A stretch of 64,000 bases of DNA from Planctomycetota bacterium (lineage in GTDB: Bacteria > Planctomycetota > MHYJ01 > JACQXL01): positions 26,213 through 90,212 of the forward strand of contig JACRIK010000027.1 in NCBI GenBank assembly GCA_016235865.1, given 5' to 3'. Below the pieces are notes generated by a model that was not told the DNA's origin, did no database searches, and saw only the letters and a list, made by a program, of their open reading frames with translations. A program made the position numbers and the translations under genes. This document shows positions 1,025-54,183 of the stretch, piece after piece. Position 1 is the first letter of the stretch. Each line of letters starts with the position of its first letter.

Positions 1025-3136
1025 ATGGACTCCTTTAAATTAGTCAGCAGATTCAAGCCCTGCGGTGACCAGCCCCAGGCCATTAAGAAGCTCGTCGCGG
1101 GCATCAATGCGAATAAGCAGAATCAGGTTTTGTTGGGCGTGACCGGCTCAGGCAAGACATTCACTGTGGCTAATGCCATAGCCAAAGTCAATCGTCCGAC
1201 ACTGGTGATTTCACATAACAAGACCCTGGCCGCCCAGTTATACGCCGAGTTCAAGGAGTTTTTCCCGCATAACGCGGTGCATTATTTCGTGAGTTATTAC
1301 GATTATTACCAGCCCGAGGCCTATATCCCCCAGCGGGATATCTATATAGAAAAGGACGCGGCGATTAATGAGAATCTGGAGCGGCTGCGACTGGCCGCCA
1401 CCTCGGCCCTGCTGTCCCGGCGCGATGTGATTATCGTGGCCAGCGTTTCCTGCATCTACAATCTCGGCTCGCCTGAGGATTATGCCGGGATGGCGCTGCC
1501 GATTAAAAAGGGTGACCGGATGCCCAGGCGGGAGTTCCTGAAACGGCTGGTGGATATGCAATACGAGCGCTCGGAGACGGATTTCAAGCCGGGCAGTTTC
1601 CGGCTGCGGGGCGGCGAGATTATAGAGATTTTCCCGCCGTACCAGGATAATGCGCTCCGGATTATATTCGGCGATAAATTAGCCCCTCACCTATCCTCTC
1701 CCCAAGGGGGAGAGGGAAGGGTACGGGGAGATACCATAGAGCAGATTCTGATGGTGCATCCGCTGACCGGACAGACCATTTCAGCCCTGGACCAATACAT
1801 GCTTTTCCCGACCAAGCATTTTATCATTCCGGAAACCAAGGTGGCCCAAGGGGTGGAGTCCATCCGGCGCGAGCTGGAGTCGCATCTCAAGGCGCTCCAG
1901 AAGCAGGGCAAGGCGCTGGAGGCCCAGCGGCTCCAGAGCCGGACCAATTATGATTTGGAGATGATTGCGGAAATCGGGTATTGCAAGGGCATCGAGAACT
2001 ACGCCCGTCATTTCAGCGGCCGGCCGGCTGGGCAGAGGCCGACCACGCTGATTGATTATTTCCCGCCGGATTTCCTGACCCTGGTGGACGAGTCGCACGT
2101 GACTATCCCGCAGATACGGGGGATGTTCAACGGCGACCAGGCGCGCAAGAAGGTGCTGATAGAATACGGGTTCCGGTTGCCCTCGGCGCTGGATAACCGG
2201 CCGATGAAGTTTCCGGAATGGGAATCCTCGGTCAGGCAGCGGGTGTTCATCTCGGCCACGCCCGGTCCGTATGAAATGGGGCTGGCAAGCCCCATTAGAA
2301 ATGACACAACCGCTACTGATAATAATAATCGGGCGACAAAGACACCTGCCAAGGCGGGCATTTCTAACGGGGCAAGTAAGCCGGATGTGGTGGAACAGAT
2401 TATTCGCCCGACCGGATTGGTTGACCCGGCAATCATCATCAGGCCGATTACCGGGCAGATTGCCGACCTGCTCCAGCGGATTCAGCAGCGGATAAAATCC
2501 AATGAGCGGGTGCTGATTACCACACTGACCAAGCGGCTGGCTGAGGAGCTGTCATCCTATCTGCAGGAGAACCGGATAAAGGGCAAATACCTGCATTCGG
2601 ATATACATACGATTGAGCGGGTCAAGATTCTCAATGAACTGCGCCAGGGTAAGTTTGATGTCCTGGTCGGCGTGAATCTGCTCAGGGAAGGGCTGGACCT
2701 GCCTGAGGTGTCGCTGGTGGCGATTCTGGATGCGGATAAGGAGGGGTTCCTGCGTTCGGCTACATCCATTATCCAGACGGTCGGGCGGACGGCCCGGAAT
2801 GTCAATGGCGAGGTGGTGCTCTATGCGGACCATATGACTGATTCCATCAACCAGGCGATGAGCGAGACCACCCGGCGCCGGAATATTCAGCTGGCTTACA
2901 ATAAGAAGAATAATATTACGCCTAAGACCATCAAGAAGGAGATTCTTAAGGGGATTGAGATGGAAGACCGGGGCAGGGAGGTCTCGGCCCGGGCTATCGG
3001 GATGAAGTTAGAGGCGTATAAAGGGGTGGAGCTGGTTCGGGAACTGGAAAGAGAGATGTACGAGGCGGCTGAGAAGCTGGATTTTGAATACGCGGCTCAG
3101 GTCAGGGATACCATAAAGAAGATAAGGAAGAAGTAG
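1025..3136 (+). CDS. uvrB: Excinuclease ABC subunit B (UvrB), 703 aa, with two lineage-specific insertions
   Basis: N-terminus FKPCGDQPQAIKKL, Walker A GVTGSGKT, helicase motifs and a C-terminal UvrB/UvrC interaction helix (EYAAQVRDTIKKI). Length exceeds typical UvrB because of the inserts at aa 220-238 and about 422-455. Confidence 0.95.
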   Translation: MDSFKLVSRFKPCGDQPQAIKKLVAGINANKQNQVLLGVTGSGKTFTVANAIAKVNRPTLVISHNKTLAAQLYAEFKEFFPHNAVHYFVSYYDYYQPEAYIPQRDIYIEKDAAINENLERLRLAATSALLSRRDVIIVASVSCIYNLGSPEDYAGMALPIKKGDRMPRREFLKRLVDMQYERSETDFKPGSFRLRGGEIIEIFPPYQDNALRIIFGDKLAPHLSSPQGGEGRVRGDTIEQILMVHPLTGQTISALDQYMLFPTKHFIIPETKVAQGVESIRRELESHLKALQKQGKALEAQRLQSRTNYDLEMIAEIGYCKGIENYARHFSGRPAGQRPTTLIDYFPPDFLTLVDESHVTIPQIRGMFNGDQARKKVLIEYGFRLPSALDNRPMKFPEWESSVRQRVFISATPGPYEMGLASPIRNDTTATDNNNRATKTPAKAGISNGASKPDVVEQIIRPTGLVDPAIIIRPITGQIADLLQRIQQRIKSNERVLITTLTKRLAEELSSYLQENRIKGKYLHSDIHTIERVKILNELRQGKFDVLVGVNLLREGLDLPEVSLVAILDADKEGFLRSATSIIQTVGRTARNVNGEVVLYADHMTDSINQAMSETTRRRNIQLAYNKKNNITPKTIKKEILKGIEMEDRGREVSARAIGMKLEAYKGVELVRELEREMYEAAEKLDFEYAAQVRDTIKKIRKK
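1683..1731. repeat. Roughly 46-bp palindromic element inserted in frame within uvrB (cccctcacctatcctctcccc aag ggggagagggaagggtacgggg)
   Basis: Inverted repeat cctctcccc/ggggagagg. It encodes the extra peptide LAPHLSSPQGGEGRVRGD between the conserved IFGD and TIEQI segments. Its 21-mer is identical to the reverse complement of 45716-45736. Confidence 0.7.
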
Positions 3137-45136: not shown

Positions 45137-46273
45137 ATGCTGTATTTCCGTATCATTGACGTCAATGCCAATCGGGCGCGGGAGGCAACCCGGGTTATAG
45201 AGGATTACGCCCGCTTTATCCTGGAGGATGCGGTCTTGAGCGCCAAGGCCCGGAGCATTAGGCATCAATTAGTAAATATCCTCAAGCCCTGCGCTCGGCA
45301 GATGCTGGCCAGCCGGGATATTCAGGCCGATATCGGCAAGGAAACCGCGACATCAGCCAAGACAACCGCTGAGATTGTCATCAGTAATCTCCGCCGGTTA
45401 AGCGAGTCATTACGCAGTATTTCAGAGTATTCTAAAACTATTATTAAAGATAATCTGTGTAAATCTGCTTGCACTGAGCAAAGCGAATGTGTGTCATCTG
45501 TGGTTAGGGATGTTGAACGCCTGCGCTTTGAGGCATACCAATTAGAACAGGAATTCTCATTTATCCTCTATCCTAACAAGGCATTTGATAAGGTGCGTCT
45601 TTATGTGTTGGTGCCGGGCATCCGGAACGATAAGATTATCAGGGATTTGATTAAGGGAGGAGCAGGTGCTATTCAATTAAGAGTAAATACCCCCTCACCC
45701 TTCCCTCTCCCCTGTGGGGAGAGGATAGGTGAGGGGAGCGGTACCGAATCATTAACCGACAAGAAATTATTGGAGCTGGCTGTAAAGTTTCGGAAGATTA
45801 CCAGAGCGCATCAGGCCTTGTTTATTATCAATAACCGGATTGATATTGCTTTGTTGAGCAATGCAGACGGCGTGCATCTGGGCGCCACTGATTGTTCTGT
45901 CCGTGACGCTCGCAAAATATTAGGGCCGGATAAGATTATCGGCGCCACCAGCCATTCCATTGCCGAGGCGCTGGACGCCCAGCGGAACGGGGCTGATTAC
46001 GTCTCGGTCGGTCCGATGTTCTCGTCGCCCACCAAGCCGCATCTGGCGCTGGTTGGGTTCAGTTATCTCAAGGAGGTGGCCAGGAAGATACATATTCCCT
46101 ATGTGGCTATCGGCGGCATCACCGCAAGAAATCTGCCGGTTCTGTTGAAGGCGCATAAGAGGTTATTTAAAGAACCGCTCAAGATTGCGGTTTCATCGGG
46201 GATTCTCAACAGCAAGAATGTATCAGAAGCAACAAGGCGGATAAATAAAATACTTAACCACAAGGGACATTAA
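45137..46273 (+). CDS. thiE: Thiamine-phosphate synthase (ThiE) domain with an unrecognised roughly 160-aa N-terminal domain, 378 aa. The ThiE domain is interrupted in frame by a palindromic element
   Basis: ThiE motifs AIQLR ... FIINNRIDIAL ... ADGVHLG ... IGATSHS ... GADYVSVGPMF. The insert VNTPSPFPLPCGERIGEGSGTES sits directly after QLR. Confidence 0.75.
   Translation: MLYFRIIDVNANRAREATRVIEDYARFILEDAVLSAKARSIRHQLVNILKPCARQMLASRDIQADIGKETATSAKTTAEIVISNLRRLSESLRSISEYSKTIIKDNLCKSACTEQSECVSSVVRDVERLRFEAYQLEQEFSFILYPNKAFDKVRLYVLVPGIRNDKIIRDLIKGGAGAIQLRVNTPSPFPLPCGERIGEGSGTESLTDKKLLELAVKFRKITRAHQALFIINNRIDIALLSNADGVHLGATDCSVRDARKILGPDKIIGATSHSIAEALDAQRNGADYVSVGPMFSSPTKPHLALVGFSYLKEVARKIHIPYVAIGGITARNLPVLLKAHKRLFKEPLKIAVSSGILNSKNVSEATRRINKILNHKGH
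45691..45736. repeat. 46-bp palindromic element inserted in frame within thiE (cccctcacccttccctctcccc tgt ggggagaggataggtgagggg). It is the inverse-orientation copy of the uvrB element
   Basis: The 22/21-nt arms are reverse complements of each other. Positions 45716-45736 are the exact reverse complement of uvrB 1683-1703. Confidence 0.75.
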
Positions 46274-47815: not shown

Positions 47816-47842
47816 GGTGGGGGAGGGGGTATGGTGGGGGGT
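47816..47842. repeat. G-run tract ggtgggggagggggtatggtgggggg (potential G-quadruplex-forming) directly upstream of the third 22-bp array
   Basis: Four G runs of 5-6 nt, read directly. Confidence 0.5.
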
Positions 47843-47851
47843 AGTACCCTT

Positions 47852-48137
47852 GGCGCTACGGAGGTACGTTATCGGCGCTATGGAGGCACGTCACCGGCCC
47901 TACAGAGGTGCATTCCAGGCGCTACAGAGGTGCATTCCAGGCACTACAAAGGTATATTCCAAGCATTACGAAGGTATATTCCAAGCGCTACAAAGGTATT
48001 CTCCAGGCATTACGAAGGTATGCTTCCGGCGCTACGAAGGTATGCTTCTGGCGTTACAGAGGTATGCTCCAGGCGCTACAGAGGTATGCTTCCGGCGCTA
48101 CGGAGGCACGTCACCGGCGCTATCATCGGTGTATGCT
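47852..48137. repeat. Tandem array of about 13 copies of a 22-bp unit (ggcgctacagaggtatgcttcc and variants) immediately upstream of the Type III mod gene
   Basis: Exact 22-nt period across 47852-48137. The three overlapping ORF-track entries 47777..48151, 47817..48218 and 47908..48186 are reading-frame artefacts of the repeat. Confidence 0.9.
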
Positions 48138-48223
48138 CACCATACGGATAGGAGGGCAAAAAACAAAGTATTTATTGCTTTTTTAATGAAGGCGGGTATG
48201 ATTATTACAAAGGAGTAATATTT

Positions 48224-49810
48224 ATGCCATCACTAAATTTTAAGGGTAAGAATGCAGTTTGGAATCATCATTTGTCCGTTCCATACCAGATACTGGAAAA
48301 GGATAAGAAGCTGTCACTCAAAGGCAAGAATGAGGATGAGAACCTGATTATAGAGGCGGATAATCTGGTCGCGCTAAAAAGCTTGTTACCGAAATATCAG
48401 GGCCGGATAAAGTGTATTTACATAGACCCGCCATATAATACCGGCAATGAAAATTGGGTTTATAGCGATAATGTCAGCAGTCCGTTAATAAAAGAATGGC
48501 TAAAAAAAGGGCCTGTTGGTTCTGAGGATTTAACCCGTCACGACAAATGGCTTTGTATGATGACGCCTCGCCTTAAACTTCTTCGTGAATTGATGAGTGA
48601 GGATGGTGTCATATTTGTTAGTATTAACGACATTGAGAGTTCTCATGTGCGTATGCTAATGGATGATATATTTAATGGTAATTTTATTGGTATGTTAATA
48701 TGGAGGAAAAAAGAGGGTGGAGGACAGACTGACGATTACTTTGTAACGGAACATGAGTATGTTCTTGCGTATGCTAAATCGCCAGATTTTAAATGGGTTG
48801 ATGAAACAATTCCGATAGATGAGGCAAAATTCAAGAAAGAAGATAATGACGGAAGATTTACTGCGGTTAAACTTGCTAAATGGGGTTCTGGAGCACGGAA
48901 AGAAGATCGGCCAACGATGCATTTTGCAATAAAATCTCCCGACGGTAAAAATGTGTATCCAAAAGCACCAGATGGGAGTGCTGGAAGGTGGCGCGTTGGG
49001 AAATTAACAATGGATAATCTTCTGGAAAATGGATTAGTCTACTGGGAGGAAAAAAATGGCGATTGGGTGGCCTACGAGAAAATCTATTATGACGAAGAAG
49101 ACGTTAAGACAATTAAAGAACGGAGCATACTATACGAATTAGCTTCTACTGGTGATGCCACGAAGGCGCTAACTGAGTTATTTGGGAAAAAGGATATATT
49201 TGAAAATCCTAAGCCAGTTGAACTTACTAAATTCTTAATGCGATATACCACTGATAAATCTTCAATTATTCTTGATTCCTTTGCTGGTTCGGGAACAACA
49301 GCCCAGGCGGTTTTAGAGTTAAATAAAGAAGATGGTAAGGAGGGGAATAGGAAAGTCATTTTAATTCAACTGCCAGAAGAAATTAGGAAAGATAAGCCAG
49401 CATATAAGGCTGGGTATAGATATGTTCACGAGATTACAAGAGAGCGCGTTAAACGAGTGATTGAAAGAGATAAATTGGGTGTTGGCTTTTCATACATGAA
49501 TCTTGGATCACAGATTGATGCGGATTCTATCTTATCAGGCAAGTTGCCAACCTATAAAGAGTTTGCCAAGTATGTTTATTATCTGGCAACCGGAAAGACA
49601 GGCAACGAGTCAATTTACCTTATATATGAAAAGGACAAGGACAAACTAAAGAAGCTGGCAATTACGCTTGAATGGGCAGAGCAGACAAACAAGAAAGACA
49701 AGGGCAAGAAGATTATCTATGCCCCGGCCTGTTTCATAGATGAAGAATACCTGGAGAAGTTTAATATCCATTTTGTGAGTATTCCTTATAATCTCTTTGA
49801 AAAGAAATAG
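48224..49810 (+). CDS. mod: Type III restriction-modification system methyltransferase (Mod), N6-adenine, beta-class, 528 aa
   Basis: Motif IV DPPYNTGN N-terminal to motif I DSFAGSGTT. Strong Shine-Dalgarno sequence aaggag. Followed 3 nt later by the res gene. Confidence 0.85.
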   Translation: MPSLNFKGKNAVWNHHLSVPYQILEKDKKLSLKGKNEDENLIIEADNLVALKSLLPKYQGRIKCIYIDPPYNTGNENWVYSDNVSSPLIKEWLKKGPVGSEDLTRHDKWLCMMTPRLKLLRELMSEDGVIFVSINDIESSHVRMLMDDIFNGNFIGMLIWRKKEGGGQTDDYFVTEHEYVLAYAKSPDFKWVDETIPIDEAKFKKEDNDGRFTAVKLAKWGSGARKEDRPTMHFAIKSPDGKNVYPKAPDGSAGRWRVGKLTMDNLLENGLVYWEEKNGDWVAYEKIYYDEEDVKTIKERSILYELASTGDATKALTELFGKKDIFENPKPVELTKFLMRYTTDKSSIILDSFAGSGTTAQAVLELNKEDGKEGNRKVILIQLPEEIRKDKPAYKAGYRYVHEITRERVKRVIERDKLGVGFSYMNLGSQIDADSILSGKLPTYKEFAKYVYYLATGKTGNESIYLIYEKDKDKLKKLAITLEWAEQTNKKDKGKKIIYAPACFIDEEYLEKFNIHFVSIPYNLFEKK

Positions 49811-49812
49811 AT

Positions 49813-52299
49813 ATGATTCTAAAGGATTATCAGATAGAGGTCATCGATAAACTAAAAGAGTTCTATACCGAGGCGGAAAAACAAAAGAGCGAGGTAGAGA
49901 AGTCAAATGATAAGGTTTTAAGAGAATCTGTTTCTTATGTTGATACTGTTTATACTAAGCTTGACCTGCATTTTGCCGACCGGCCTAAGAACGGCTTAGG
50001 ACAATCATATACCCGTTTTTGCCTGAAGATTCCGACCGGCGGGGGCAAGACCCTATTGGCAATTGAGGCCATCCGGGAATACCAAAACCTATTCGCCAAG
50101 AAAAGAACCGGGTTAGTGGTTTGGATAGCGCACCGCGAGACCATCTACCGCCAGACCATAGAGAAACTCAGGGATAAAAATCATATCTACCGCCAGTGGC
50201 TGGACCAATGCAGCGGCAACCGGACCATTATTCTGGAAAAAGGACAGCCGTTACGGATGCAGGACACGGACAGCAATCTGGTGATTCTGATGCTGATGAT
50301 TCAGTCGGCCGGAAAGAAAACCAAGGAAAATATGAAGGTCTTTCAGGACAGCGGCAAATATATTGACTTCTTCCCGCCGGATAACCAATACGAGGAGCAT
50401 GAAAAACTATTAAGGAGGGTCCCTAATCTTGATCCTACCCCTGGTGATGTATTCGGCAAGAGAATAATAAAGACCAGTTTAGGCAACATAATCAGGATGG
50501 AGAATCCGCTTATGATTGTGGATGAATTCCATACGATGTTTTCGGATATTGCCAAAAGCACGTTGGACGGCTTAAACCCATCAATGATAATCGGACTGTC
50601 GGCTACGCCCAAAAAACGGGAGGGCATGAATATTTTTATAGAAATTACGGGCAAGGCGCTTAAGGACGAGGAGATGATTAAATTAGATATGCACCTGCAT
50701 TCGCCGACTACCAGCGGAGATTGGCATGAAATGATTAACAGCGTCAGAAAGAAAAGGGAGACGTTGGAAAAGACAGCGACTGACTTTAACCGTAATAAGG
50801 GGATATATATCAGGCCGATAGCATTGATACAGGTAGAGCGAACGGGTAAAGACCAGAGGGGAAAAGAATTTGTGCACAGCGAGGATGTGCGCGAATATCT
50901 GGTTGCGCAAGGAGTTCCGGCTCATCAAATCGCGGTAAAATCAAGCGAAATGGATGAGATTAAAGAGGAAAAACTCTTATCGCAGACAAGCGAAATCAGA
51001 TACATCATTACCAAAGAGGCGTTAAAAGAGGGCTGGGATTGTTCATTTGCCTATGTTTTAGGGGTGATACCCAATGCCAGGTCTGAATCCTCAATGACCC
51101 AGTTGGTCGGCCGGATATTACGCCAGCCGTATGCCAAGAAGACCGGGGTGGCGGAATTGGATGAAAGTTATGTCTATTTTAACCAGGGCGATACGGAAGA
51201 TGTCCTGCATAACATCCAGCGCGGATTTGTAGAGGAGGGTTTGGGCGATTTGGTCCAGAATATCAGCCGGGAATCAGGCCCGACCGGCTCGGACAAGATA
51301 AAAACAAAGATTAAGAAAGATATTCTCAATAAATATCCTGAGTCGTTATATCTGCCGGTCTGGCTGGTTAAGGAAGATAACAAATACCGGCGGTTCTCTT
51401 ATGATATTGATATCAGGCCCAGGATTAACTGGCAAAACGGGCATTACGATAAATGGCTGGAAAAAGAAATCCTGCCTTTGCTTAGCGCGAAATCATCCGC
51501 TTATGAATATATAGTTGATTTGGACAATCGGCATGAAAGGCGGGATTTGGATGAGATGGATGAGGGCGTTTTTGATATTTCATACCTAACCCGCCGGATA
51601 TCCGATGTGGTTGATAATGCCTTTATTGCCTTTGACCTGGCTCAGGAATTTATCTCGGCCGGCGATAAATACAAAGACAGGCAAAAACTGCTAATCAACA
51701 GTGGATTCATTATCAAGGAAATCGTCAAGAAGTTGTCAGATGAAAAAATCCAGCAAGAGCAATTAATATTTGATTCATTACTGAAAGGCAAGGAATTAAT
51801 GCTGGCGGTCAGCGATGACGAGCAGGTCGGGTATTCGTTGCCGAAAAATAATGAGGTCTATCCGGAATATGCCGAGACATATAAACTGAATCTTTTTGAG
51901 AAGTCGGATATAAAATCAATGAATTCGCTGGAGCGGAGAATTGCCGGTTCTATTGATAATAAGAAAAATGTAATCTGGTGGGCGCGGAATATAGCCAGCA
52001 GCAGGAAATGGTATGCCATAAGAGGTTGGAAGAGAGGCAAAATCAGGCCTGATTTTATCGTGGCCAGGAAGAATAAAAGCGATGCGTTGGAACTCGTTTA
52101 TATCATTGAGAGCAAGGGCGAACATTTAATTGGCAATCCGGATACGATTTATAAAAAGAGCGTATTTGATAAGATGAATCAGGAAACCATTGAACAGGTA
52201 ACCCTGAAACTAATCAAGTTTAAGCTGAATAAGGACTTTAGGTTTGAACTGGTTGAGCAGGGACAGGAAGATATTGAGATAAACAGATTCTTTAATTAA
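49813..52299 (+). CDS. res: Type III restriction enzyme Res subunit (SF2 helicase domain plus C-terminal PD-(D/E)xK nuclease), 828 aa
   Basis: Motif I KIPTGGGKT, motif II MIVDEFH, helicase C-domain, and C-terminal RPDF ... ELVYIIESKGEH endonuclease motif. Confidence 0.85.
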   Translation: MILKDYQIEVIDKLKEFYTEAEKQKSEVEKSNDKVLRESVSYVDTVYTKLDLHFADRPKNGLGQSYTRFCLKIPTGGGKTLLAIEAIREYQNLFAKKRTGLVVWIAHRETIYRQTIEKLRDKNHIYRQWLDQCSGNRTIILEKGQPLRMQDTDSNLVILMLMIQSAGKKTKENMKVFQDSGKYIDFFPPDNQYEEHEKLLRRVPNLDPTPGDVFGKRIIKTSLGNIIRMENPLMIVDEFHTMFSDIAKSTLDGLNPSMIIGLSATPKKREGMNIFIEITGKALKDEEMIKLDMHLHSPTTSGDWHEMINSVRKKRETLEKTATDFNRNKGIYIRPIALIQVERTGKDQRGKEFVHSEDVREYLVAQGVPAHQIAVKSSEMDEIKEEKLLSQTSEIRYIITKEALKEGWDCSFAYVLGVIPNARSESSMTQLVGRILRQPYAKKTGVAELDESYVYFNQGDTEDVLHNIQRGFVEEGLGDLVQNISRESGPTGSDKIKTKIKKDILNKYPESLYLPVWLVKEDNKYRRFSYDIDIRPRINWQNGHYDKWLEKEILPLLSAKSSAYEYIVDLDNRHERRDLDEMDEGVFDISYLTRRISDVVDNAFIAFDLAQEFISAGDKYKDRQKLLINSGFIIKEIVKKLSDEKIQQEQLIFDSLLKGKELMLAVSDDEQVGYSLPKNNEVYPEYAETYKLNLFEKSDIKSMNSLERRIAGSIDNKKNVIWWARNIASSRKWYAIRGWKRGKIRPDFIVARKNKSDALELVYIIESKGEHLIGNPDTIYKKSVFDKMNQETIEQVTLKLIKFKLNKDFRFELVEQGQEDIEINRFFN

Positions 52300-52335
52300 T
52301 AGGGGGAATACCCCTCCTTTCTCTAATGTAAAACT

Positions 52336-54183
52336 ATGTATTTCACAAAGCCCGTTTTAGCGGTAATCAAAAGAGTTATAAAAGACCTGAAAACCCGGAC
52401 AGAACTTGATAACTTATTTGAATCGTATGGCTTTGATCCTAAAAAAGATTGTGATGTTGGCAATAAATTAAATCTGGCTGGTTCATATTTAGACCATCAA
52501 GATTGGAGTGATGGAACAACGGCACATAATTTATTGGAGCTTTTGACCGAAGTTCTTCTGGGCGAGAAAGAGTCAGATACCTATCGCTGGCCCCAGGTGG
52601 AATTAATGCTTAACGCGCTAATTAAAGACAGCTATTACTGGATTAATAAGAATAAGAAATTTATCAGACAAGGTGAGCCATTTCCGCAACCCGCATTAAA
52701 TAAACCTGTTGAGCAAAAGCCTTCTGCGGAGAAGACGCCAGCTATTTTACCAGAAAATACCGGGGAGATAGCAGGAAAATACGTTAAAGAGATTCTTGAT
52801 AGGGAAAGAAATAATTTATTGTTTATAAGCAAATTCCTGGTTGATATAAAGCCCTTCTGGAATGACTGGCAATCATTTAAAGTAAAACTTCTTACAGTAC
52901 TTAACAATGAGAAAAAACGGATTATTATTAACGGGCAGGTTATCTTAGAGGTAAGTCCGATTGACTCTAAGGAAAAGCCCATTCTCCTTGAAATAGATAA
53001 TTTTTTCCAGGGCATTACTTTCCGCTATCCTTTTGCTGAATTAGAAGGATTCCTTAAAAACCTTATGACCGGCAAGGTGGTTGCTCAGGGAGAAGAATAT
53101 CATTTTGTGAACACCTCTCTTGGGCCATACGGTCCGGTTTGGGTGAACTACGCATATGATTACCCCGCACCAGTGAGCATGATAGAATCATTGAGCGGTA
53201 AAACAGCGTTTGCCATAGATTACAACGGAGATAAACTCTCAAACATTCTTGATAATACCAAAATTAAATGGCAGGACTTTTACCGGACTTGTCGGGGAAA
53301 AGGTTATAATGACCCATCTTACTTATTTAGATTATTCTTCGGATTAAGGGATGCTTATGTTACCAACGATTACCAGACCCAAATATGGATATATGCACCA
53401 ATTGATGTTTATATCAAGGAGTTTAAACCGCTTAAAAATAAATTGTCGGCCGTTATCTGGGCTGGCCCGTTAATAAAGCCGGATAATGTTGCATTGCGAT
53501 TTGTTCCCAGTAGGGAATCCCTTCCAGAACAAAGACCGGAATTTAAGCTGTCTGATTTTTCGCCACAAGGCAATTGTTTGTACCAGAAAGATATCCCAGC
53601 TGATTTTGATCAAACAGCTTTTATTGATTTAACCTATAAGGAAAAATTATTTTCAAAGGAACTTGAAATGCCGACATCTTCCGAAGATAAGCCCATTACT
53701 TTATCTATGGCAAAGAAATCAAAGATAGGCGCTAAAAATACTACAATTATTCATATGCCTAAAGGAACTAAGCCCAATGATATTACTTTTAGATTTAAAG
53801 ACCGCCGAACGATGGATGTTTTACTAAAAGATAATACCTTTAAGAGTAATGTATCATTTGATGAACTTGGATTTCAAAAGCAAAGCACCGGCAAAAAGAA
53901 GAAATCAGAACCAAGTATGCTATGGGAATTATTGGTAACGATGAGTGTAAATTATTCTAACCCGGGTTGGTCTTTTAAGGACAAGTCCACTAAAGGAAGG
54001 CAGCAGATAAGTTTACTTAGGGACAAACTTAAAACATTGCTAAATATAGAAGACGACCCCATTCCACTTAATTCTGAATTAAGAGGTTATCGCCCGGAAA
54101 TTCGTCTTGAGCCGCCACCAGATGAGCGACATCATTCCTATATAAATCCTGACGAAAAAGAGTCTGATTTGGAAGACGAGTAA
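52336..54183 (+). CDS. Hypothetical protein, 615 aa, no recognisable domain. Co-oriented immediately downstream of res within the AT-rich island
   Basis: Long ORF with AT-rich codon usage like mod and res. No Walker, nuclease or transmembrane motifs recognised by eye. Acidic, Lys-rich C-terminus. Confidence 0.6.
   Translation: MYFTKPVLAVIKRVIKDLKTRTELDNLFESYGFDPKKDCDVGNKLNLAGSYLDHQDWSDGTTAHNLLELLTEVLLGEKESDTYRWPQVELMLNALIKDSYYWINKNKKFIRQGEPFPQPALNKPVEQKPSAEKTPAILPENTGEIAGKYVKEILDRERNNLLFISKFLVDIKPFWNDWQSFKVKLLTVLNNEKKRIIINGQVILEVSPIDSKEKPILLEIDNFFQGITFRYPFAELEGFLKNLMTGKVVAQGEEYHFVNTSLGPYGPVWVNYAYDYPAPVSMIESLSGKTAFAIDYNGDKLSNILDNTKIKWQDFYRTCRGKGYNDPSYLFRLFFGLRDAYVTNDYQTQIWIYAPIDVYIKEFKPLKNKLSAVIWAGPLIKPDNVALRFVPSRESLPEQRPEFKLSDFSPQGNCLYQKDIPADFDQTAFIDLTYKEKLFSKELEMPTSSEDKPITLSMAKKSKIGAKNTTIIHMPKGTKPNDITFRFKDRRTMDVLLKDNTFKSNVSFDELGFQKQSTGKKKKSEPSMLWELLVTMSVNYSNPGWSFKDKSTKGRQQISLLRDKLKTLLNIEDDPIPLNSELRGYRPEIRLEPPPDERHHSYINPDEKESDLEDE

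Follow-up and report, generated by a model that had tools for sequence, protein, structure and literature searches.

The BoxC, PIT and TMECO repeats (Bergler 1992; Hoyne & Maher 2000; Holder et al. 2015, PMC4666352) constitute a known type of GC-rich intrastrand-triplex repeat. TMECO is represented by 3610 copies in 262 proteobacterial genomes; in E. coli, where a typical K-12 copy reads CCCTCGCCCCCTTGGGGAGAGGGTTAGGGTGAGGGG, the copies are always intergenic, they have no promoter or terminator activity, they form a stable triplex in vitro with none detected in vivo, and their loci exhibit unusual local genomic variability among strains (PMC4666352). Other palindromes are known from inside genes. 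According to the accounts of Ogata et al. (2000) given in PMC10969869 and PMC3733652, the Rickettsia palindromic elements (RPEs) lie in frame in unrelated housekeeping genes, uvrB among them, and are translated as an additional fold-compatible peptide; further copies are intergenic. Intragenic repetitive extragenic palindromic sequences (REPs) of the GTAG/CGTC super-families are in frame in a minority of cases, are enriched in replication and repair genes (uvrA, uvrB, dnaE) and encode about 20-30 residues; the uvrB of R. conorii is interrupted twice, and the PVC bacterium Opitutus terrae is REP-rich (Di Nocera et al. 2013, PMC3733652). Palindromic repeats that lie in frame within genes, repair genes (uvrA/uvrB) included, therefore have precedents in the RPEs and in Di Nocera 2013. 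Here, we describe a 46-bp palindrome inside thiE, and a second copy inside uvrB, on a 64-kb stretch of Planctomycetota bacterium DNA (contig JACRIK010000027.1; the whole stretch analysed is called the window). The thiE feature is probably a dispersed palindrome of the BoxC/PIT/TMECO type, which would have been inserted ancestrally, translated in frame, tolerated as a passenger and spread by recombination.

The features on which this reading is built are as follows.
45137 to 46273, plus strand: thiE host open reading frame (ORF), with a ThiD2 domain and a TMP-TENI (thiamine-phosphate synthase, ThiE) domain
45683 to 45742, plus strand: net in-frame insertion in thiE, 60 bp or 20 codons (VNTPSPFPLPCGERIGEGSG), relative to empty-site ThiE orthologues
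45691 to 45736, no strand: thiE palindrome core, 46 bp, imperfect, in four blocks
45691 to 45699: core block 1, CCCCTCACC
45704 to 45712: core block 2, CCTCTCCCC
45716 to 45724: core block 3, GGGGAGAGG
45728 to 45736: core block 4, GGTGAGGGG
1025 to 3136, plus strand: uvrB host gene
1676 to 1732, plus strand: net insertion of 57 bp in uvrB (KLAPHLSSPQGGEGRVRGD), of approximate extent, inside the UvrB_inter (UvrA-interaction) domain
1683 to 1728, no strand: uvrB copy of the 46-bp core, in opposite polarity to the thiE core

The palindrome lies right after the QLR motif of ThiE, where an earlier note, made from the letters of this DNA alone, had placed it. From 45691 to 45736, the order is CCCCTCACC-CTTC-CCTCTCCCC-TGT-GGGGAGAGG-ATA-GGTGAGGGG; each arm consists of two 9-bp stem segments with an asymmetric bulge between them, and blocks 2-4 form a C-block, a G-block and a mirror-G-block, which is the layout of the BoxC/TMECO triplex motifs. 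Folded as single-stranded DNA, the core reaches -19.4 kcal/mol on the plus strand (z = -5.4) and -20.6 kcal/mol on the minus strand (z = -4.9), and 0 of 200 shuffled versions fold equally well. Within the window, the arm pattern is matched 3 times (0.09 expected) and the inner hairpin pattern 2 times (0.06 expected). The 60-bp insertion is made up of GTAAATAC on the left, the palindrome, and AGCGGT on the right, and the stretch of ThiE spanning it, as read from the frame, is ...IQLRVNTPSPFPLPCGER.... Relative to close orthologues, the gain is 20 codons and not the 22 residues that were counted earlier.

Comparison with other ThiE proteins shows that this is a true insertion. In an alignment of 27 homologues, P0003 and P0005-P0012 (78-85% identity) have an empty site reading QLR-(A/T)E(H/D)LDDKEL, and the alternative that orthologues might have a native loop of the same length does not hold; the filled alleles are those of the window, P0002 and P0004, in which the insert sits at the identical codon. 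The invariant ThiE residues, Q180 and R182 included, are all kept in the window protein. Two parts of the query, residues 151-185 and 209-374, can be aligned with P. furiosus ThiE (1xi3), and the 23 residues between them (186-208) are opposed to 3 residues of the solved chain. In the ThiD2 part of the same gene (45467-45493), there are 9 additional residues, ACTEQSECV, specific to the window relative to the closest orthologues and with no obvious palindrome.

The reading frame of the insert is what would be required of a translated element. Six-frame translation of the family consensus leaves a single stop-free frame per orientation, PSPFPLPxGERIGEG and PHLSSPxxGEGRVR, so that the Pro/Gly/Ser/Glu-rich peptide expected in either orientation is indeed obtained, for one open frame each; whether a third consensus frame contains a stop varies with the loop, and neither window copy has one there. 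It is the two stop-free consensus frames that are in use in thiE, in uvrB and at loci L138, L189 and L209. The net gains in frame, 60 bp (20 codons) for thiE and 57 bp for uvrB, and the indels of 6 bp and 33 bp by which the filled thiE alleles differ are all multiples of three. The use of stop-free frames, the lengths in multiples of three and the frame-keeping indels are together as predicted for survivors among translated insertions.

Like behaviour was found in other genes, where Pfam confirmed five further hosts with in-frame copies.
Metallophosphoesterase gene: in-frame host, in Omnitrophota
Cytidylate kinase gene: in-frame host, in Deltaproteobacteria
2-oxoacid:ferredoxin oxidoreductase alpha subunit gene (POR_N/PFOR_II): in-frame host, reading ...NADKLAPSPFPLPYGERIGEGGTDY...
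BatA/VWA protein gene: in-frame host, reading ...NADKLTPFPLPYGERIGEGGTGY...
RecG gene (L209): in-frame host, reading ...TPHLSSPHRGEGKGEGVG...

In the RecG protein, the Helicase_C match starts only at model position 40 of 110. The long ORF spanning the element at L141 was rejected as spurious, being low-complexity and antisense-like. At these particular ThiE and UvrB sites, such peptides occur only in this lineage among 240 ThiE and UvrB homologues, and no report of BoxC/TM-type elements in frame in coding genes, or in Planctomycetota, was found in the open-access literature.

The family to which the element belongs is indicated by its dispersal and layout. A genome scan with the arm pattern CCCCTCACC-N3-4-CCTCTCCCC yielded at least 120 loci. 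Among the matches listed, the hosts are Alpha-, Beta-, Gamma- and Deltaproteobacteria as well as Planctomycetota, Verrucomicrobia, Acidobacteriota, Nitrospirota, Rokubacteria, Omnitrophota, Chloroflexi, Elusimicrobia, Spirochaetia and Bacteroidetes; nearly all of these listed loci continue from the arm through a loop into GGGGAGAGG(G), and a subset also has an outer arm GGGTGAGGGG. The window copies match E. coli TMECO-5 and TMECO-17 at 30/36 positions (Table 1 of PMC4666352), and an E. coli K-12 copy that was read directly lies between tauD and hemB. The three-block layout of BoxC/PIT/TMECO (CCCTCNCCC / GGGNGAGGG / GGGNGAGGG-like) is present as CCTCTCCCC / GGGGAGAGG / GGTGAGGGG on both strands of both copies, which represent the four-block, 'palindromic' form, each strand having a triplex-type motif of its own. 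The strict published pattern, CCCTCNCCC-N3-6-GGGNGAGGG-N3-GGGNGAGGG (9-nt stems, 3-nt second loop), has no match in the 64-kb window, because the copies there have stems of 8-9 nt and a second loop of 2-3 nt; once relaxed, the pattern picks out exactly the two window copies (45703-45735 and 1684-1716). Among the matches listed, 11 of 120 genome-scan loci fit the strict pattern, and this paucity suggests that the published pattern describes a proteobacterial subset of a wider family. A scan of 45500-45900 against Rfam with permissive E-values returned sub-threshold chance matches only (Pab91, 26 bits against a gathering score of 71), so that the element corresponds to no RNA family known there. 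Judged by its sequence and block layout, the element is a member of the BoxC/PIT/TMECO type.

In the metagenomes, the scan used the lineage-typical arm CTCACCTATCCTCTCCCC, and its number of matches is to be read as at least. The 46-bp core of the window recurs in several copies on groundwater contigs from Hainich, the same samples being the source of P0009 and P0122; 84 of 101 elements (~83%) on contigs with GC < 0.56 are not spanned by a long ORF; and the closest relatives of the window element occupy short spacers between ORFs (all three statements refer to the matches listed). Across the genome, metagenome and viral scans, the element is dispersed, multi-copy and present in distant genomes, and the further copies whose search the earlier note had advised were found in all three and in frame in other genes. 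Across 14 aligned loci, the 46-bp core is nearly invariant. Conservation continues in part beyond it: one flank has the A/T-rich tail (G)GATAAATTA(G/A)C, and the opposite flank, in a subfamily, has GGAACTG(G/A)CT(T/A)TGAAATTCC, which brings the full unit to about 70-80 bp.

The uvrB copy shows the same core turned around. Reverse-complemented, its left arm (CCCCTCACCTATCCTCTCCCC) is identical to thiE 45716-45736, precisely as had been claimed, so that a 21-nt arm is common to both copies. In the remaining arm, 2/22 positions differ (right outer arm, GTG AGG to GTA CGG); these substitutions are synonymous in the frame used, both codon pairs encoding V R, and they weaken the hairpin to -14.6 kcal/mol from about -20. 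The tail GATAAATTAG is common to the uvrB, L138 and L189 copies, and thiE has GTAAATAC in its place. Relative to this tail, the uvrB core has the opposite polarity to unrelated copies with a thiE-polarity core, which hints, in a small sample, that cores may flip relative to their flanks. The idea of insertion in both orientations accordingly stands for the palindromic core, whose polarity is opposed in the two genes, and fails for the A/T-rich flank GATAAATTAG, which runs the same way in uvrB as in thiE-polarity copies. The two hosts had also been taken as essential genes. This description does not fit them: in model bacteria, uvrB is not known to be essential, and cells depend on thiE only if they cannot salvage thiamine.

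The site in uvrB holds different inserts in different lineages. The UvrB of P0123, 96% identical, is empty (...RIIMEEGISQI...), and that of the window reads ...RIIFGDKLAPHLSSPQGGEGRVRGDTIEQI...; the boundaries of the insertion are blurred because adjoining codons also differ from this empty-site orthologue. In UvrB alignment columns about 225-295, P0122 shares the right half of the element with the window and has its left half replaced by a further hairpin-forming sequence, P0124 and P0128 have a different palindromic element (CHSERSEES...LRSAQGDK) in the same loop, and P0141 has another large insert there, of 70 residues and Pro/Gly-rich. From this variety of inserts in one UvrB_inter loop, the loop is judged to be a permissive or hot site. 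In the window protein, the UvrB_inter match breaks off at position 60 of the 91 in the model.

A second, unrelated in-frame insert of the same gene, SPIRNDTTATDNNNRATKTPAKAGISNGAS (2280-2382, residues about 437-470), is flanked by 24-nt inverted repeats (2280-2303 and 2359-2382) that are 79% complementary and 55 nt apart. It is present in P0122 and absent from the 96%-identical P0123, and it looks like an element of another family resembling the miniature transposable elements with inverted repeats (MITEs); a related peptide, LTSNGAS, is found in a different ThiE orthologue (P0010). Counting this insert, the window uvrB is interrupted twice.

By modelling the window ThiE with AlphaFold2 on the ThiE alignment, the position of the insert in the enzyme may be described. 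The model is confident overall (mean predicted local distance difference test score, pLDDT, 86.7; predicted TM-score, pTM, 0.81), and its only segment below pLDDT 50 is residues 187-204, the insert being residues 183-202. The insert falls between strand beta-2 (178-182, AIQLR) and helix alpha-2 (208-224) of the TIM barrel. Foldseek superposes the C-terminal domain on the ThiE structures of B. subtilis, P. furiosus and M. tuberculosis, at TM-scores (normalised to the target) of 0.8-0.89. The insert is predicted to be a disordered Pro/Gly/Ser/Glu-rich loop of about 20 residues. B. subtilis ThiE itself has a longer loop at this position, and the active site of ThiE is built by loops (PMC3144219); taken with TIM-barrel topology and the model, this would put the insert loop on the catalytic face of the barrel. 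No source for the ThiE A-loop residues Arg59/Lys61 was found in the open-access literature. The loop is exposed and length-variable, yet near the active site. The suggestion of a tolerated surface-loop insertion is thus borne out as far as a low-confidence loop in a confident model is concerned, but the site, beside QLR on the catalytic face, is not an arbitrary piece of surface.

The history of the thiE insert involves recombination. In a rough neighbour-joining tree, which is weak, being star-like and based on 336 columns, the filled ThiE alleles are not monophyletic. Sliding-window comparison gives 96-98% identity between the window and P0004 over nt 511-627 around the insert and ~80-88% outside, the empty alleles being only 42-72% identical across that interval; other segments of the gene ally the window instead with P0002 and P0003. 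The insert lies within a recombination island, and the filled alleles are scattered in the tree because the thiE genes are recombination mosaics; independent insertions were rejected as the cause on account of the sliding-window identities. It appears from these comparisons that the insert-bearing tract passed among related lineages by short-tract homologous recombination. The filled alleles have themselves changed, with a 6-bp deletion in one arm of P0004 and a 33-bp loop expansion in P0002, itself with a small nested hairpin, both of which keep the frame.

Lineage-specific in-frame inserts are also seen elsewhere in ThiE, in P0010, P0012, P0014, P0016, P0019, P0020, P0022, P0024 and P0026; that of P0019, SPLPSRERERVRGE, resembles the product of another GC-rich palindrome, and in-frame repeat-derived inserts may be common in this Brocadiia-related clade. 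In two ThiE homologues of other Planctomycetota, P0060 and P0115, the gene call joins a Y1 transposase domain (PF01797, RAYT/IS200-like; motif PDHVHIL) to the C-terminus, and in their genomes a REP-type tyrosine transposase gene lies directly downstream of thiE, read through a low-complexity linker.

Based on the results presented above, the course of events may be outlined. A BoxC/PIT/TMECO-type repeat would have entered thiE in the ancestor of a small sub-clade of groundwater Planctomycetota, and the insert would have been kept, and would persist, because its net length is divisible by three, its frame is the only stop-free one for its orientation, and the beta-alpha loop that received it is permissive. 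It would then be translated within ThiE as a disordered loop. Most insertions of the family would survive only between genes, the intragenic survivors having passed a filter of frame, length and site; after fixation, the insert-bearing segment would have been exchanged among related lineages by short-tract homologous recombination. On present evidence, we infer that the insert is a tolerated and probably neutral passenger and not a functional module.

Several observations weigh against this account. Translation of the insert together with the ThiE enzyme is deduced from its frame rather than observed. Both full window copies are intragenic (2/2), which is unusual for the family, in a tiny sample. 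The right arm of the element is 100% conserved at the DNA level across 3/3 filled thiE alleles, which could reflect constraint rather than recency or recombination. The position directly after QLR on the catalytic face makes an effect of the insert on ThiE activity possible. The uvrB junction is not a simple insertion, as ~12 nt of host sequence beside the element also differ from the empty allele. With regard to movement, Holder et al. (PMC4666352) described E. coli TMECO as having no link to transposons, phages or plasmids. No Y1/RAYT-like ORF was detected in the 64-kb window (phmmer, with the PF01797 domains of P0060 and P0115 against six-frame ORFs); no GTAG/CGTC REP tag was seen beside the stems of thiE, uvrB or the aligned family copies; and no consistent target-site duplication was evident on comparing the filled and empty sites of thiE and uvrB. 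The stem flanks are AATAC/AGCGG in thiE, ATTAG/AGATA in uvrB and ATTAAC/GAACTG in the family consensus, and a search for Y1 (PF01797) across the fetched loci gave one weak match (L187/L235). The proposal of a mobile element has its basis in the empty-site orthologues and in the same core at many unrelated loci; neither a mobilising enzyme nor a target-site duplication was found.

The arm motif was also found on 83 viral stretches of IMG/VR, with 101 arms, of which 68 have a hairpin partner and some are clustered. These matches are weakly suggestive of phage- or prophage-borne spread, IMG/VR contigs being able to include host flanks. Three IMG/VR contigs (L261, L297 and L307) have 3-4 copies of the arm motif within 5-12 kb, and in two of them, L261 and L297, a second GC-rich hairpin-type motif (CCCCTCGCCCC...) comes after every copy, an arrangement reminiscent of clustered REPs (BIME-like); these clusters may be prophage or host-flank sequence.

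Other explanations of the thiE insert were considered. That it is an artefact of assembly or annotation, or a loop native to the lineage whose palindromic character is due to chance, is hardly credible. GC-rich hairpins can produce assembly errors, and the source is a metagenome-assembled genome (MAG); but the filled alleles come from three independent assemblies (an NCBI MAG, the groundwater assembly ENA ERZ909578 and the metagenome JGI 3300011007) with the insert at the same codon, so that misassembly, which the earlier note had wanted checked, is excluded, and the 46-bp core recurs nearly identically at 14 or more unrelated loci, with 2-3 matches in the window where chance would give 0.06-0.09. 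This explanation is effectively refuted. A protein-level module kept by selection, which would serve ThiE as a lid or a regulatory loop above its active site and, in UvrB, would modify the UvrA-interaction domain, would agree with the placement of the insert on the beta-alpha face of the barrel, immediately behind the catalytic QLR strand, where B. subtilis ThiE has its own longer loop and loops form the active site (PMC3144219), and with its retention in three diverged alleles with frame-preserving indels. Both substitutions in the uvrB copy are synonymous, and Di Nocera et al. (PMC3733652) have speculated that REP insertions alter the activity of repair genes. Nevertheless, we regard such a module as unlikely, since unrelated proteins contain this peptide-coding core too and most of its copies lie between genes, the loop is predicted to be disordered, the insert is absent from most orthologues, the closest ones included, and the left arm is decaying in P0002 and P0004.

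The element might instead act in DNA or mRNA, as a recombination or instability hotspot, a translational pause or an mRNA stabiliser, its coding being incidental. The strength of the hairpin (-19 to -21 kcal/mol), the stable triplexes of TMECO oligonucleotides in vitro and the unusual variability of TMECO loci among E. coli strains (PMC4666352) are consistent with this, as are the different palindromic elements in the same UvrB loop by lineage, the nested hairpin in the P0002 loop and the recombination island around the thiE insert. However, PIT/TMECO elements show neither promoter or terminator activity nor a triplex footprint in vivo, and the structure is not maintained, the uvrB copy having lost stem pairs (-14.6 kcal/mol) and P0004 6 bp of one arm; an action of this kind is improbable. 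The reading preferred here remains that of a translated passenger of the BoxC/PIT/TMECO type. It supports the earlier note in its essentials, to which the identification of the family and the prior art have been added.

The finding shows that BoxC/PIT/TMECO repeats, 'always intergenic' in E. coli, can also reside in frame within conserved enzymes, in several phyla, and it provides a further example of proteins with translated palindromic DNA, neither from Rickettsia nor of the REP kind. Such inserts break domain-model matches, as in UvrB_inter of the window UvrB and Helicase_C of the L209 RecG, and inflate the apparent divergence among MAG proteins; the filled and empty groundwater alleles are a natural system for the study of repeat spread. 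A broader scenario, which we hold to be rather doubtful, is that BoxC/TM-type palindromes are a still-active family spreading horizontally across bacteria, possibly with phages, and that they repeatedly become translated disordered enzyme loops in deep-branching lineages (this Planctomycetota clade, Omnitrophota and others), gather at permissive sites or hot spots (UvrB domain 2 for example) and then pass between related genomes by short-tract recombination; a flip of the core relative to its flanks would point to transposase-free, hairpin-based movement.

Some other features of the window lie downstream of thiE.
47820 to 47841, minus strand: possible degenerate half-copy CCCCCCACCATACCCCCTCCCC, with 2 mismatches to the arm pattern and no hairpin partner; it may be a chance match
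47852 to 48122: tandem array of ~12 copies of a 22-bp unit GGCGCTACAGAGGTACGTTACC (79% matches; periods 44 and 66 also scored), downstream of dapB and just after the G-rich half-site 47820-47841
48001 to 54000: region with GC 0.38-0.45 and strongly positive GC skew, against about 0.50 elsewhere in the window; it may be a foreign island

Compared with the known systems, the window element resembles BoxC/PIT/TMECO in its block layout (CCCTCTCCCC, loop, GGGGAGAGGG, short loop, GGGTGAGGGG) and in being dispersed, multi-copy, highly conserved in distant bacteria and at times palindromic (double); no transposase is known for these repeats. It differs in a fourth block, CCCCTCACC, which completes a full palindrome with a 21-bp stem, in stems of 8-9 nt and a second loop of 2-3 nt, which fall outside the strict published pattern, in the residence of both window copies in frame within genes, where the E. 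coli copies are 'always intergenic', and in its host, which is a Planctomycetota, TMECO having been reported from Proteobacteria. With the RPEs, as far as the cited accounts describe them, it shares in-frame insertion into conserved ORFs with empty orthologous sites, a resemblance in behaviour only. RPE-1 is about 100-150 bp and the RPE families are from Rickettsia, whereas the window element has a 46-bp core, about 60-80 bp with its tails, and a family found across bacteria; here the RPEs are set apart by description, not by sequence. Intragenic REPs are, like this family, short palindromes mostly outside genes with a minority in frame, but the window copies have no unpaired GTAG/CGTC tag, no RAYT gene is found in the 64-kb window, and the stem is longer than a typical REP stem. 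As for the MITEs (Correia/NEMIS, ERIC, Nezha, QMITE), the element is likewise small, non-autonomous and dispersed, with inverted repeats and occasional in-frame ORF fusions; it differs in having no detectable target-site duplication, although its arms could count as terminal inverted repeats, in the ~12 nt replaced at uvrB, and in having almost no sequence between its inverted arms and no identified parent insertion sequence. In general, the closest parallels in behaviour are the Rickettsia palindromic elements and the intragenic REPs, and the sequence and layout are those of BoxC/PIT/TMECO.

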